Notes: generated by a model not told the origin, from the letters alone. A stretch of 59,006 nucleotides of DNA from an uncultured Acidimicrobiaceae bacterium (GCA_964569015.1 CAZMSN010000001.1:36439-95444); one strand, 5' to 3'. Positions 46,108 to 59,006 are shown, counted from the first letter of the stretch. Made by a program: numbers and translations.

Positions 46108-46181
46108 CGCGGGGTGGAGCAGTCTGGTAGCTCGTCGGGCTCATAACCCGAAGGTCGCGGGTTCAAATCCCGCCCCCGCTA
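46108..46181 (+). tRNA. Initiator tRNA-Met (CAT)
   Basis: CGCGGGG acceptor with C1:A72 mismatch, three G-C pairs at the base of the anticodon stem, CAT anticodon, GGTTCAAATCC T-arm; CCA not encoded. Confidence 0.97.
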
Positions 46182-46185
46182 CGAC

Positions 46186-46216
46186 AAGAAGCCTGGGCCA
46201 CGTGCCCGGGCTTCTT
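46186..46216 (+). terminator. Hairpin after tRNA-Met
   Basis: aagaagcctgggc-cacgt-gcccgggcttctt. Confidence 0.75.
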
Positions 46217-46243
46217 GGCGTTTCCGATGGATTTGGACCAAGA

Positions 46244-46340
46244 CGCGGGTTCAACGAGGTTTCGTCGAGCGAGCGCAGCCCAGTTGGACCTAGGGAGTCC
46301 GCGGAGCGATGGTCGACGAGACCTCGCCCCGCCCCCGCTA
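46244..46340 (+). repeat. tRNA-Met 3' fragment 1 with 72-bp T-loop insertion (46255-46326)
   Basis: cgcgggttcaa + insert + ccccgcccccgcta. Confidence 0.92.
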
Positions 46341-46346
46341 CGAAGG

Positions 46347-46380
46347 AAGGCCCCGGTCAGCGAGCTGCTGGCCGGGGCTT
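46347..46380 (+). terminator. Hairpin after tRNA fragment 1
   Basis: aaggccccggtcagc-gagct-gctggccggggctt. Confidence 0.7.
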
Positions 46381-46430
46381 CTACCGTCTGTGGTCTTCTT
46401 CTACCGTCGCTTCTACCGGATGTTCTACCG
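46379..46430 (+). repeat. Four TTCTACCG repeats, candidate integrase arm-type sites
   Basis: Exact copies at 46379, 46399, 46411, 46423. Confidence 0.75.
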
Positions 46431-46433
46431 GGC

Positions 46434-47534
46434 TCAACCTGTAGAAGCAGCCGGAGCGATCAGGTTCTCGAACACTCTGGCGGCTTCAGCTTGCATGCCG
46501 GGGAGGACGTGTTGGTAGGCGTCGATGGTGAACGCCGGGTTCCCGTGTCCGAGTCGTTCCGACACGACCTTGACGGGTACTCCAGCTTTGATGAGCAGGG
46601 TGCCGTGGGTGTGTCGGAGGTCGTGGAGTCGGATGGGTGGGACACCCGCTCTGGCGCTGATCCGTTCGAAGGTTTGGGAGATCGAGTGGGGGTGGATCGG
46701 GTTGCCGGCGGCGTCGGTGAATACCCAGCCGCGAGGTTCGATCCCCACTACTTCTTGTTCTGTCTTCTGCCATGCCTGCCATGCGGTGAGCACGTCGATG
46801 GTGGTTGGGTCGAGGTCGATCGCTCGGCGGGCGTTGTGGGTCTTGCCTCGTGACTCGTGTACCTCGTAGGCAACCGCGACCAGTCCGCGACTGACAGATA
46901 GGCTGCCGGCGGCGAGGTCGATGTCCTCCCAGCGCAGGCCGAGCAGTTCGGAGCGTCGCAGGCCGGTGGTGGCGGCGAGCCAGAAGGCCGGGAAGAGGCG
47001 GTGGCCGGCTGCGGTACGCAGAAACGCTTGTAGCCGTTGGGCGTGGGCCACCAAGGCGACGTTGCGGGTGACGAGGCCCCGGCGGACCGCGTCGTTGAGG
47101 GCGCTGCGGATGATCAGATGCACCTCCAGCACAGTCTTGGGTGCGAGCGGTCTGCGTCCGTCGGTTGGGTGCAGCATCCGCTCGTAGAGGGTTTCGAGGT
47201 GGTGTGGGCGGAGCCGACGGATCGCGATCCGACCGATTATTGGGATGATGTGACGGTCGATCTTGCGCCGGTAGCCGTCCCACGTGCTGGCAGCCAACTC
47301 CAGCTTCTTGCCGGGGAGCCAGCGGGTGGTCACCTAGGCGCCGAAGGTGAGCGAACGGGCGTCGTCGTTGCGACCGTTGAGCTCGGCGGCGAGACGGGCG
47401 GTGAGCTTCTCGGCTTCCTGGCGGTCGGTGCCAGCGGGATGCCAGCTGCGGCGTTCCCGACCGGTGACCGGGTCCAGGCCTTCATAGATGACCGCGTACC
47501 AGCGGTTTCCCTTGTGTGCGACGTAGCCTTTCAT
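46434..47534 (-). pseudogene. Tyrosine integrase 1, split by in-frame TAG at 47334-47336, with a 16-aa internal deletion
   Basis: 66-aa arm-like domain, then GLRRSE, HDLRH, LGH, YQH catalytic motifs; linker shorter than in paralog 2. Confidence 0.9.
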
Positions 47535-47569
47535 GATGGTCCTCCTTTTCGGGTCCGACGTTTGGAACC

Positions 47570-47589
47570 CGGTAGAAGGATCGGTAGAA
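47570..47589 (-). repeat. Two TTCTACCG repeats upstream of integrase 1
   Basis: CGGTAGAA at 47570 and 47582 on + strand, 12-bp period. Confidence 0.7.
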
Positions 47590-47673
47590 GAACAGGAGAG
47601 CTTGCGGAGCGTCTAAAGGTGGACGGTCAAGGCCAGCACTGGGAGCGGCATGACGATATGAGTAGGCGATTGG

Positions 47674-47922
47674 GTGTGCCTCCACCCGCCAGGGCCCAAC
47701 GGGGATACGCCCATACCTTGTCGACTCATACAGGATCGAGCCGGGCCAGGAGGTCAACGTGACGAAGCGACACCGGAAGGGCGCACCTATCCGAAGGATT
47801 GGCAGCGTTGTCGAGGATGCGGAGTGCTCGTGACGCTGGGGACGGACCACGATTGTCAGTCTCTGATGTCAACCGGGAAAGAGATACAACCGGAACTTGG
47901 CGGAGACGACGACGCCGAGTGA
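47674..47922 (+). CDS. Possible small Cys/His-motif protein
   Basis: CRGC...HDC motif and acidic tail; coding status unproven. Confidence 0.3.
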   Translation: MCLHPPGPNGDTPIPCRLIQDRAGPGGQRDEATPEGRTYPKDWQRCRGCGVLVTLGTDHDCQSLMSTGKEIQPELGGDDDAE

Positions 47923-56725: not shown

Positions 56726-56789
56726 CAAATGACCTCCTGGCTTCTTCGCAGCCCTGTGGGCCGTTGTGAGGACAGCATGCCTCAGTGCA

Positions 56790-56817
56790 CCTGTGGCGAA
56801 GCTGAGTAGACCTGAGA
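56790..56817 (-). promoter_or_regulatory. CTCAG-type repeats upstream of the acidic repeat protein
   Basis: Minus strand tctcagg-tct-actcagc-ttcg-ccacagg; shares CTCAGCTTCG with the boxes at 53947-53974. Confidence 0.55.
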
Positions 56818-57063
56818 CACGGCTGGAGAGCAGGCGCTGCCGATCGCAGTTCTAGCCGTCGGTGGGCGAGGGAGAGCAAGGGCCGTGGTACCGGCAAAGC
56901 ACCGAGAGCCGGCATCACAGGATCGACAAACAACACATGCCATCGCGCGTCCATTGCGCGAGAGGGTGCGATGGGAGGGGCAACAACGCGATATGACGAG
57001 AAACGAAAACCGTCTCTGAGTAGGCGTTTTGCGCATTTCCCCAGGTCGGCGAATCAGCTCCTC

Positions 57064-57188
57064 TCGGGCTCATAACCCGAAGGTCGCGGGTTCAACGAGG
57101 GGTCATCGAGCGAGCGGAGCCCAACTGGGACTTGGGGTTCTTGCGGAGCGATGGTCGATGACCCCGAGCTTCCCCGCCCCCGCTACCA
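57064..57188 (+). repeat. tRNA-Met 3' fragment 3 with diverged about 76-bp T-loop insertion (57096-57171), ending in CCA
   Basis: tcgggctcataacccgaaggtcgcgggttcaa + insert + ccccgcccccgctacca. Confidence 0.93.
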
Positions 57189-57202
57189 ACGAAATACCTG
57201 TT

Positions 57203-57236
57203 CAGAAGGGGTCCCGCTTCGGCGAGGCCCCTTCTG
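57203..57236 (+). terminator. Hairpin after tRNA fragment 3
   Basis: cagaagggg...cgc-ttcg-gcg...ccccttctg. Confidence 0.7.
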
Positions 57237-57260
57237 CGTTCTGGAGCATCTACCAGGGAT

Positions 57261-57560
57261 CTACCAAGGCGGTGTGCGGTTCGGACCACGAGCGGCGGCC
57301 GCTGCCGCGAAGATCACGCTTGGTGGCGGCACTCTGCTGAATGTAGCAACCAGGCGCTGCGCGACAGAGCGGCCGATGCCGTTCGCGCCTTCGACAGCCC
57401 ACACCCGATCATCGAACTCGGCGACAGCGTCGAGCATCTCGACCAGCCCCTCGTCGGTGTTGTCGAACCGGCGTCTGGTCTTGATGGTCTCGTCTCGCCC
57501 CCTCACCGAGATCGTGTTCGATGCCTTGTGCGGATCGAGACCGATGATCACTTCGGTCAT
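57261..57560 (-). pseudogene. IS110-family recombinase N-terminal (DEDD) fragment
   Basis: IIGLDPHKASNT...RFDNT...WAVEGANGIGRSVAQRL, then similarity is lost; AGGAG RBS. Confidence 0.88.
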
Positions 57561-58057
57561 TGCCTTCTCCTCTCGTCGATGAATCAGTGAACGACGAGGG
57601 CGGCCAATGCCTCTTCGAGCAGCGCAAACCTCTCTTCAGCCACAACCTCGTCTGAAGTCCAGGCCGCAAGCCATTAATGAGCCACAACCCGAAACCACGG
57701 GCTGGGCAGCCGGTTAACGAGCGAACCATCTCGGACCCCGATCCAGAGCCTGGTCTCGACCCCAGATCACTTCCAGTTCTAACAAGAGGCCGGATCTCGG
57801 GCTTTCCAGCCGGGCTTGGCAGAACGGGACGCGTGTTGTTATGCGTTCGCGTCTTCGCGACACGACGCGAACGCTGTCGGTCCCCTGAGCTGCTAAATCG
57901 ACGGGCGCCGACTCGGCGACCGTCGGCGAGCCGATCCGACGGCTCGTCGGACCGGCCTCTCCCTCGCCGGGCGGGAGGGCCGTATCCACCCCACCGCACC
58001 AGCACCGCCGACATCTAGGAGTAGCGTTCGGGTCGGAGCTCGAGGAAGGGGAAGGAC

Positions 58058-58471
58058 ATGGATGAGTGGAACACCTCCTGGTTTCAGGTCTTCCGACTAG
58101 CGTGCTCCCGAATCCTCGAGATGTTCGCCGACGCCAATCCGGGTGCCAAGAATGAGGCGCGGAGAGCGGCATATGTGTTCGGAGACCTCGACGGCGAAGG
58201 ATATGGGTCGGTCATCGGCGACCTCATAGAGCTGTCCGACGAGTGCAGCCGGTCGTTGGACCGGGGAGAAGCCGAGCTGACGGAGGTCGTGCCGCAACTT
58301 CACGACCCGATGATGGAATGCCTCAAGGAGTACGGTAAAAGCGGCCTGGACGACAGCTTCTGGGTTCCGTGGAGCCAGTTCTGGGAGGCCCTTGACGTCG
58401 AGGCGATCGTTGAGTACATGAAGAACGAGCGGCGAGAGCAGACGACCGGGCCGAGCAACACACATCTGTAG
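58058..58471 (+). CDS. Hypothetical protein
   Basis: Purine-rich RBS (gaaggggaagga) and globular-looking 137-aa composition; no motif recognised. Confidence 0.6.
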   Translation: MDEWNTSWFQVFRLACSRILEMFADANPGAKNEARRAAYVFGDLDGEGYGSVIGDLIELSDECSRSLDRGEAELTEVVPQLHDPMMECLKEYGKSGLDDSFWVPWSQFWEALDVEAIVEYMKNERREQTTGPSNTHL

Positions 58472-58578
58472 CCGGCTCGTCGGCCATCCTCCACGGCTGC
58501 CTCCACCGCCACACCCATGCCAAAAGAGCGCATCGCCTGGCCCGCCACCCAATAGGCCGCTGCTTGACAATACGAGCC

Positions 58579-58872
58579 ATCACCGCCATCGCGGTGATGC
58601 AGCTCTGGGAGCAGGGGCTGGTCGACCTCGACGCTCCCGCCAACGACTACCTCCGCGCCTACCAACTGATCCCGGCCGAGGCCGGTCACCGGCGGTGCGC
58701 CACCTGCTGACCCATATCGCCGGTCTCGGCGAACTGGCGCACCCCTCGGGCATGGTCAGGCCCGACTTCGGCGAGAGCGTGCCGGCCGGGGAGCCGCTGC
58801 CGTCGCTGGTGGAGTTCGACGGCGGCGGCCTCCACCTCCACGCCGATCACCCGGACACGACGTAGATGCAGG
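58579..58872 (+). pseudogene. Beta-lactamase-family serine hydrolase fragment
   Basis: ITAIAVMQLWEQGLVDLDAPANDYL, frameshift, then VRHLLTH; SxxK N-terminus absent; stop near 58872. Confidence 0.8.
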
Positions 58873-59006
58873 CGAACGGTCATAACATCCGGACTTATCA
58901 GAGCCTCTTCCTTGCTCGGCGACTTCAACATCACCGAGTATCGAGGGGCTCTGATCATCAGCCCGGCATCATCACCACACTGCGGCTCCCCAACTCACCG
59001 CGCAGT

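Follow-up and report, generated by a model that had tools for sequence, protein, structure and literature searches.

Could the 3' half of an initiator tRNA gene that is interrupted by a long hairpin ever have been part of a working tRNA? This question is raised by a stretch of 59,006 nucleotides (nt) from an uncultured Acidimicrobiaceae bacterium (GCA_964569015.1, CAZMSN010000001.1:36439-95444; the window), in which a normal initiator tRNA gene (tRNA-fMet) is followed by three displaced copies of its 3' half, each with a hairpin of 72 to 78 nt in the T-loop. The locus is a decayed tandem array comprising two horizontally acquired tyrosine-integrase islands at the tRNA-fMet gene and a possible remnant of 61 nt next to the tRNA. 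The initial annotation considered that the insert had either been present in the attachment site of the element (attP), so that integration would have produced a tRNA-fMet gene with a T-loop insertion, or colonised only halves that were already displaced. The latter, offered as a fallback, is favoured by the clean attachment sites of related elements, by the flank of the third fragment and by a chimeric strain variant. Our best explanation, to which we give an even chance of being correct, is that the hairpin was gained after displacement, was spread among the fragments by gene conversion, and was kept from the live gene by selection.

Three displaced tRNA halves with a hairpin in the T-loop

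A tRNA-Met(CAT) is the only tRNA gene found in the window by ARAGORN and Rfam. On direct reading it exhibits the hallmarks of an initiator, namely C1 mismatched with U72 and an anticodon stem containing three G-C pairs (GGG/CCC). The three partial 3' copies that follow it, all on the same strand, were found by a repeat search and by direct reading. The annotated order of tRNA, fragments, integrases and cargo was confirmed, as was the start of fragments 2 and 3 at the anticodon arm.

46108..46182, + strand: live tRNA-Met(CAT) with a normal T-loop (TTCAAAT) (ARAGORN; Rfam RF00005, 65.6 bits)
46244..46343, + strand: fragment 1, from the T-stem to the tRNA 3' end, without the anticodon arm; insert at 46255-46326
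52395..52515, + strand: fragment 2, from the 5' strand of the anticodon stem (tRNA position ~28) to the 3' end; insert at 52427-52498
57064..57188, + strand: fragment 3, with the same start as fragment 2, to the encoded CCA; diverged insert at 57096-57172

Island 1 ends on the right at fragment 2, which also delimits island 2 on the left. The array is reproduced by five metagenome contigs of the Joint Genome Institute (JGI), each with its fragment in the same context, and is therefore not an assembly artefact. A pattern scan of the JGI metagenomes yielded ten matches, of which five came from this array (in four samples), four were due to chance and one was contig L098, described below. The JGI samples of this population are those behind Ga0307422, Ga0307438, Ga0315543 and Ga0315544. 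The array contigs are 98-100% identical to the window and cover fragment 1 (L092, L094 and L096), fragment 2 (L089) and fragment 3 (L093); fragment 2 is identical in L089, as is fragment 3 in L093.

In all three fragments, the sequence TTCAA-AT-CCCGC of the normal T-loop reads TTCAA-hairpin-C-CCCGC, the hairpin thus replacing positions 59-60. The insertion of 72 nt described in the initial annotation is found in fragments 1 and 2, whereas that of fragment 3 measures 76-78 nt (net gains of +71, +71 and +75 nt). The junctions, TTCAA|CGAG... and ...|CCCCGC with loss of AT, are common to the three copies, which argues for a single founding event. The stem of the insert comprises 14 base pairs (bp) in fragments 1 and 2 and 11 bp in fragment 3, and its folding is more stable than that of shuffled sequences (z = -4.0 for fragment 2 and -3.3 for fragment 3). 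According to fold predictions, the T-stem is still able to close around the hairpin. A crossover within the T-loop by a tyrosine recombinase was considered as a source of the insert and was ruled out, as the 7-nt loop is not duplicated at the junctions. A second hairpin, rich in G+C, lies 3' of each fragment (46349-46379, 52517-52552 and 57205-57235). These three hairpins had been annotated as terminators; each is indeed present, but they fail a simple terminator scan, having T-poor tails, and are best regarded as putative terminators.

Attachment sites of related elements

The integrase family to which the two islands belong is very large (more than 4,800 matches at E <= 1e-20), and contigs were fetched for members with intact genes; loci and contigs compared with the window are given L numbers. 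In L086/L087, an island with integrase P0005 consists of the integrase, a response regulator, a kinase and an open reading frame (ORF) of 154 amino acids (aa), and is bounded by a normal tRNA-fMet on one side and, at its right attachment site (attR), by a normal 48-nt fragment corresponding to tRNA positions 28-75. Island 2 of the window is collinear with the single island of L086, itself an Acidimicrobiia contig (87% nt identity over 4.6 kb), and the alignment stops exactly at both inserts. The cargo proteins are 95% (response regulator), 84% (histidine kinase) and 82% (homologue of the 154-aa ORF) identical. As the UPF0182 protein encoded in L086 is not among the matches of at least ~62% to that of the window, the hosts are distant, and their collinear islands indicate that the island is a transferable unit.

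The same picture emerges from the flanks. The sequence following fragment 1 is 97.6% identical to the flank of the left attachment site (attL) of L088 and 95% identical to that of L083, both of which adjoin normal tRNAs, and that following fragment 2 matches the attL flank of L086, next to a normal tRNA, at 96% identity. Each fragment is thereby linked to the arm on the integrase side (P') of its own element (97.6% to L088 and 96% to L086), which bears out the tandem-array logic of the initial annotation. Elements of the int1 type have insert-free halves in L088, L083 and L059, and insert-free halves are also found in L084, L125, L127 and L128, three-fragment arrays being among these further members. 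Relatives of both elements with intact integrases have clean attL and attR. The element family thus appears normally to carry clean tRNA positions ~28-76 in its attP and to leave a normal tRNA and a normal 48-nt fragment.

The identity block begins exactly at the anticodon stem/loop in every fragment compared, as in the anticodon-centred attP sites that the Islander classification recognises by an identity block starting from the anticodon (PMC4383910). We infer that attP is anticodon-centred in these elements, strand exchange presumably taking place in the anticodon loop. The halves next to int1 and int2 would then once have completed the live tRNA, as initially proposed, but in their normal form and not with the insert. 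A quite unlikely alternative is a crossover at the junction of T-stem and acceptor, 3' of the T-arm; the P arm of the island to the left of each fragment would then include the tRNA-like stretch of that fragment, which would never have been in a live tRNA. This possibility is favoured by the differing T-stems next to related elements (GGAGG/CCTCC in L083, GTAGG/CCTGC in L088, GTAGG/CCTAC in L059 and GCGGG/CCCGC in the window), which make the attL T-arm look host-derived, and by the attR of L088, whose T-stem is mismatched (GTAGG/CCTCC). It is opposed by the position of the identity block, and there would be no selective reason to keep 40 nt of tRNA sequence on the P side. In L008, L040 and L127, the T-arms of attL and attR move as units and, where they differ, both are self-complementary, which excludes a crossover in the T-loop only. 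The elements of L083 and L088, which adjoin these different T-stems, are nearly identical, and their T-stem anomalies suggest later homologous exchange inside the 48-nt repeat.

With regard to fragment 3, its 3' flank consists of CCAACGAAAT and the hairpin at 57205-57235, which is of the native type (AACGAAAT plus a hairpin). The island-free relatives L011, L012, L019 and L068 have C(G/C)AACGA(A/G)(A/G) and a hairpin 3' of the tRNA, and the same native-type flank is found 3' of the terminal fragment in L086, L088 and L128. No third integrase was detected 3' of fragment 3 by tblastn with five family members, and Pfam searches of the downstream ORFs were empty. Given this flank and the lack of a downstream integrase, fragment 3 is best read as the end of the array, abutting the native chromosome. 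As it nevertheless bears the insert, at least this copy was not brought by attP.

These observations bear directly on the possibility that the insert is carried in the attP of variant elements. For such elements, a displaced half would have served as a safe harbour, and establishment would otherwise have required a host with a second tRNA-fMet; the halves adjoining int1 and int2 would thus be in their original state, with no secondary change. Fragments 1 and 2 each lie directly on the P' arm of their own element. Moreover, the tRNA is a busy hotspot, with arrays of at least three fragments in other genomes and extra anticodon-loop junctions in other strains, and the hypothetical insert-bearing tRNA is predicted to fold as a cloverleaf with an extra arm. 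All of this would agree with an insert-bearing attP. Nevertheless, every examined relative with an intact integrase has a clean half, and the insert was never found beside an intact integrase or in any other context. Integration at the anticodon loop of a displaced half would also leave the downstream half insert-free, and a secondary event is needed regardless for fragment 3. An insert-bearing attP, as suggested in the initial annotation, is therefore unlikely.

Searches for the hairpin in other sequences

Representative genomes were scanned at one genome per species, covering 185,579 species. Neither a strict core pattern nor a relaxed two-block pattern revealed the insert in them, yielding only four chance matches, none of which lies in a hairpin. 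No match was obtained in IMG/VR with a pattern scan, and blastn searches of phage and plasmid collections matched only the tRNA part and the downstream hairpin. Rfam returned tRNA only, both at the gathering threshold for the window and at E <= 5 for four insert-bearing contigs. The 59-kb window contains only three hairpin copies, and a search of 1.67 Mb of related loci with a mismatch-tolerant regular expression and a stem check returned coding-region noise. Searches with blastn-short against the window and all loci found no local donor DNA for the insert. Looking up the haplotype by exact protein retrieved nothing on record for the UPF0182 protein and int1, and short contigs only for the response regulator.

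A full-length tRNA-fMet gene with the insert was also sought. A junction pattern for T-loop inserts of 49-79 nt gave 22 matches in the representative genomes, all of which are a normal tRNA with a short duplicate of the 3' end, and no insert-bearing full-length tRNA-fMet was present among the JGI metagenome matches. The insert is confined to three displaced fragments as far as these collections reach, and its presence in a live or full-length tRNA, as considered in the initial annotation, finds no support. Within that reach, this is the outcome that the initial annotation had named as refuting an intron or attP-borne insert. It was probably never part of a working tRNA.

An intron-like element or a tolerated expansion at positions 59-60, once present in a functional initiator tRNA and either spliced out or accommodated, is thus extremely improbable. 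The T-stem can close around the hairpin, and an extension at positions 59-60 is sterically conceivable, these positions bulging outward in the T-loop motif. However, the absence of such full-length genes from the 185,579 representative genomes (with the pattern used) and from the JGI metagenomes argues against it, as do relatives with an identical tRNA sequence, whose genes are normal. The known bacterial tRNA introns are group I introns of at least 200 nt located in the anticodon loop, and bacteria are not known to possess the archaeal splicing endonuclease. No intron or ribozyme model of Rfam matched the insert, its 72-78 nt are too short for a self-splicing core of group I or II, and it is found only in 5'-truncated fragments, where it interrupts no full-length tRNA gene. 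We regard the reading as an intron or tolerated expansion as close to refuted.

The match in L098 (2093-2200, minus strand as read) is a hairpin with a 17-bp stem and the same two core blocks (23 core bases) as the insert, located directly 3' of GTTCGA. It adjoins a perfect actinobacterial LexA box (TCGAACgtatGTTCGA) and lies directly upstream of a weakly RecA-like ORF and an ORF of the impB/mucB family, a pair that resembles an imuA'-imuB cassette.

Relationship between the copies and strain variants

Fragments 1 and 2 are identical at 99 of 100 positions, whereas their adjoining flanks and integrases are only ~76-82% identical. Such near-identity amid diverged flanks is a signature of conversion. 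Between the type of fragments 1 and 2 and that of fragment 3, the blocks TCGAGCGAGCG and GCGGAGCGATGGTCGA are unchanged and three stem pairs are compensated (U-A to G-C, C-G to G-C and G-C to A-U), the inner 11 bp showing no uncompensated change. Three exactly complementary double changes are unlikely to have arisen independently, while a shuffle control for covariation with four sequences was not significant (74/500). The insert of fragment 3 has lost the outer 3 bp and differs at ~30%, about one third, of the positions in its apical loop.

Two strain variants, L094 and L096, share 98-99.7% identity with the window. In their fragment 1, the 5' arm of the hairpin is of the fragment 3 type (26/28 positions, including all three diagnostic ones) and the 3' arm is of the fragment 1 type, so that the stem is broken. 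This chimeric hairpin, a recombinant between copies, is direct evidence that copies exchange sequence. Its 5' arm also has two changes that are absent from both types of the window.

Other variants concern the live gene itself. In L092 (reverse strand, first 111 nt) and L096 (1-67), the normal 3' half and its hairpin (window 46140 onward) are preceded by foreign sequence and not by the tRNA 5' half. The foreign sequences of the two contigs differ but share CCCGGAAGGAA and are joined at the anticodon loop, as ...CCCGGAAGGAA|CTCATAA. In these strains, the half that is live in the window has apparently itself been displaced by further elements with a different type of integrase, and it carries no insert. 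Displaced halves thus do not gain the insert automatically. The tRNA-fMet locus is still in use.

The pattern of conservation also raises the possibility that the hairpin represents a mobile element, small and site-specific, whose family has yet to be described and which inserts into single-stranded or hairpin DNA at T-loop-like GTTCRA sites. At least two independent events would then have occurred in displaced halves, and insertions into the live tRNA would be lethal and hence never seen. The invariant cores, the three compensated pairs and the variable apical loop suggest a family under constraint, and the two 5'-arm changes of L094 and L096 hint at more variants. The hairpin of L098 lies in an unrelated contig, has the same 23 core bases with a 17-bp stem and is also located directly 3' of GTTCGA, while the 14-nt terminal inverted repeats of the insert resemble those of miniature inverted-repeat transposable elements (MITEs). 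A mobile element would explain the covariation better than a single insertion followed by conversion. On the other hand, extra copies are absent from the window and from the 1.67 Mb of related loci, the representative genomes gave chance matches only and IMG/VR none. The target site is not duplicated, and neither a transposase gene (in Pfam scans of the island ORFs) nor an HUH-nuclease gene was found in the window. Conversion alone also accounts for the chimeric variant and for the fact that fragments 1 and 2 are nearly identical. We regard the mobile element as the main rival explanation, about half as likely as gain after displacement followed by conversion.

In broader terms, the hairpin could belong to a so far undescribed family whose members are small and structured, consisting either of mobile DNA hairpins or of a motif bound by proteins as RNA or DNA. 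Such a family would have the invariant cores UCGAGCGAGCG and GGAGCGAUGGUCGA and a freely covarying stem, and would land 3' of GTTCRA. Displaced halves would be the only T-loops in which such an element is survivable, and L098, beside the LexA box of an imuA'-imuB-like operon, would be its second member. This proposal is doubtful on present evidence.

Proposed history of the insert

Our preferred explanation, gain after displacement, can be described as follows. A structured hairpin of ~72 nt would have entered the T-loop, at the boundary between A58 and the 3' strand of the T-stem, of a tRNA half that was already displaced and non-essential. It may then have been copied to the other halves by gene conversion over the flanking tRNA gene sequence (tDNA), whose homology extends over 32 nt 5' of the insert and ~15 nt 3' of it. 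If the live gene were converted, the initiator tRNA would be lost and selection would purge the change, which could explain why the live copy alone is clean. The hairpin of fragments 1 and 2 separates the presumed crossover in the anticodon loop from the arm-type sites of the P' arm, so that excision would probably have been impaired. It is therefore plausible that the insert locks the islands in place in the case of fragments 1 and 2, although this effect is moot since both integrases are dead.

Several observations weigh against this history. In fragment 1, the tDNA homology 5' of the insert now amounts to only 11 nt, which implies that the conversion is older than the truncation of fragment 1 or that fragment 1 was the donor. 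Conversion over arms of 32 and 15 nt is inefficient. The presumed position of the crossover is deduced from identity blocks, and the attL and attR T-stems of L088 misfit a simple anticodon-loop exchange. In addition, the genome beyond the 59-kb window may hold further hairpins of this kind or a second gene for tRNA-fMet. Finally, the compensated pairs, the invariant cores and the divergence of the loop are those of a constrained element and not of junk copied in place, and this pattern would be explained at least equally well by diverged members of a family that inserted on two independent occasions.

Islands, integrases and cargo

Fragments 1 and 2 are both followed by a G+C-rich hairpin, TTCTACCG repeats and a tyrosine integrase on the minus strand. 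The TTCTACCG repeats are putative arm-type sites of the integrase. The features of the two islands are as follows.

46349..46431, + strand: P' arm of island 1, with the hairpin at 46349-46379 followed by four TTCTACCG-type repeats (flank identity to attL of L088 and L083)
46434..47534, - strand: int1, tyrosine integrase pseudogene (Pfam PF00589 and PF14659; tblastn, 83% to P0003)
48514..51063, - strand: cargo of island 1, GAF-PAS histidine kinase (Pfam HATPase_c, HisKA, GAF and PAS_4)
52517..52600, + strand: P' arm of island 2, with the hairpin at 52517-52552 followed by degenerate arm-type repeats (96% to the attL flank of L086/L087)
52564..53741, - strand: int2, tyrosine integrase pseudogene (Pfam PF00589/PF14659; tblastn in two frames, 83-90% to P0005)
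54044..54718, + strand: cargo of island 2, OmpR-type response regulator (Pfam)
54715..56142, + strand: cargo of island 2, HAMP histidine kinase (Pfam)
56900..57063, + strand: P arm (right end) of island 2 (85% to the pre-attR of L086 and 88% to that of L088)

The annotation of int1 and int2 as the integrases of the islands is correct with regard to their family, as both are tyrosine integrases according to Pfam, but both are pseudogenes. Translation of int1 reveals an in-frame TAG at 47336-47334 and a deletion of ~16 aa ahead of the catalytic domain; at the position of this stop, the homologues P0003 and P0005 have FGAYL, with a Tyr codon. In int2, a TAA at 53543-53541 is accompanied by at least two further stops and by a frameshift near 53000. 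The stop occurs at the same Tyr codon in both pseudogenes (TAG in int1 and TAA in int2), which are otherwise ~80% identical and belong to different types of element. These stops could be a coincidence, the result of conversion between int1 and int2, or the consequence of selection for a truncated N-terminal arm-binding peptide. Another observation concerns the minus-strand ORF at 56273-56728, the homologue of the 154-aa ORF of the L086 island, which holds a 123-nt tandem duplication (81% identity) at 56301-56546.

Surroundings of the live tRNA

The source of the window belongs to the Acidimicrobiia: its UPF0182 protein is best matched in metagenome-assembled genomes (MAGs) labelled Acidimicrobiaceae or Acidimicrobiia, with at most 87% identity. 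The features that flank the live tRNA are the following.

43191..46058, + strand: UPF0182 gene (Pfam PF03699, E 4.7e-282)
46186..46216, + strand: 'term0', a G+C-rich hairpin immediately 3' of the live tRNA (direct reading)

The order UPF0182 then tRNA-fMet is kept in many Acidimicrobiia relatives, and the UPF0182 gene appears on this synteny to anchor the native left border of the array. The live tRNA is identical at 75/75 nt to that of L008, L012, L016 and L084. Together with 46217-46243, term0 forms the 61-nt spacer that separates the live tRNA from fragment 1. This spacer has no match in any fetched locus, and blastn-short searches against the window and all loci gave no donor. It also differs from the native-type flank (AACGAAA...) of island-free relatives. 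We conjecture that the spacer and the 5' truncation of fragment 1 fit a further element that was later deleted.

The 22 genomes with a short duplicate of the tRNA 3' end (L103-L124) belong to many phyla. Their normal tRNA-fMet is followed, 55-85 nt further on, by a duplicate of the T-loop/acceptor 3' end, often with a repeated downstream flank, and the layout of tRNA, spacer and fragment 1 in the window is similar. These duplicates may be what deleted islands left behind, or the result of duplication on a very small scale. Contigs of related Acidimicrobiia MAGs often stop at or just past this tRNA-fMet (L003, L004, L011, L016, L019 and L027), which fits a variable island hotspot that breaks assemblies.

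Comparison with known systems

The closest known counterparts of the array are the Islander tandem arrays (PMC4383910), in which, likewise, one end is formed by an intact tDNA, the 3' fragments share its orientation, every island has one integrase and one fragment, and the identity block extends from the anticodon stem to the 3' end. The window has a full-length tRNA, cognate fragments and an integrase and fragment proper to each island, and its units are mobile elsewhere with precise att borders. It differs in that both integrases are pseudogenes, the nearest fragment is truncated and lies 61 nt from the tRNA, and every fragment bears an insert. Islander also lists 'damaged' displaced tDNA fragments, with a small deletion 3 bp upstream of the discriminator, in 148 of 3919 islands (PMC4383910). 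As in the window, the lesion is confined to the displaced, non-essential copy and the regenerated gene is intact; in contrast, the lesion of the window is a structured hairpin inserted in the T-loop, is present in three fragments and shows covariation. Actinomycete integrative and conjugative elements of the pSAM2/SLP1 type (PMC2440964) share with the islands an actinobacterial host, integration at the tRNA 3' end, an att site from the anticodon to the 3' end, and an integrase next to attL, whereas the islands of the window show no replication or conjugation genes and carry two-component signalling genes as cargo.

The insert was likewise compared with other small elements. Among palindromic repeats, we considered MITEs, paired repetitive extragenic palindromes (REPINs), IS200-IS605 palindromes and integron attC sites, which resemble the insert in length, in terminal inverted repeats that form a long hairpin and in the lack of target duplication. 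However, the insert has a variable stem and a conserved interior, the opposite of REPINs and attC. Unlike MITE, REPIN and IS200-IS605 repeats, it is not multi-copy in the available sequence, and no partner transposase was found. It also lacks the R'' (RYYYAAC) and R' (GTTRRRY) boxes of attC, its ends being CGAGG.../...CCTCG, and no IntI-type integrase was found. Bacterial group I tRNA introns include those of cyanobacterial tRNA-fMet and, like the insert, are extra sequences within an initiator-tRNA-like sequence. In contrast to these introns, the insert lies in the T-loop, measures 72-78 nt, matches no group I model and was never found in a full-length gene.

The array is thus an ordinary decayed member of the known island arrays, and the repeated structured insert is a new form of fragment 'damage'. 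Neither a bacterial T-loop intron nor an attP with the insert is supported. Displaced tRNA halves serve to map islands and to reconstruct integration histories, and insert-bearing halves can mislead both fragment-based island finders and conclusions drawn about attP. If the hairpin were truly an element that targets T-loops, it would add a small motif, mobile or regulatory, to those known; otherwise, the locus is an ordinary decayed array with a curious scar. Displaced halves are not passive fossils: they can gain a structured insert and exchange it, while selection would shield the live gene.

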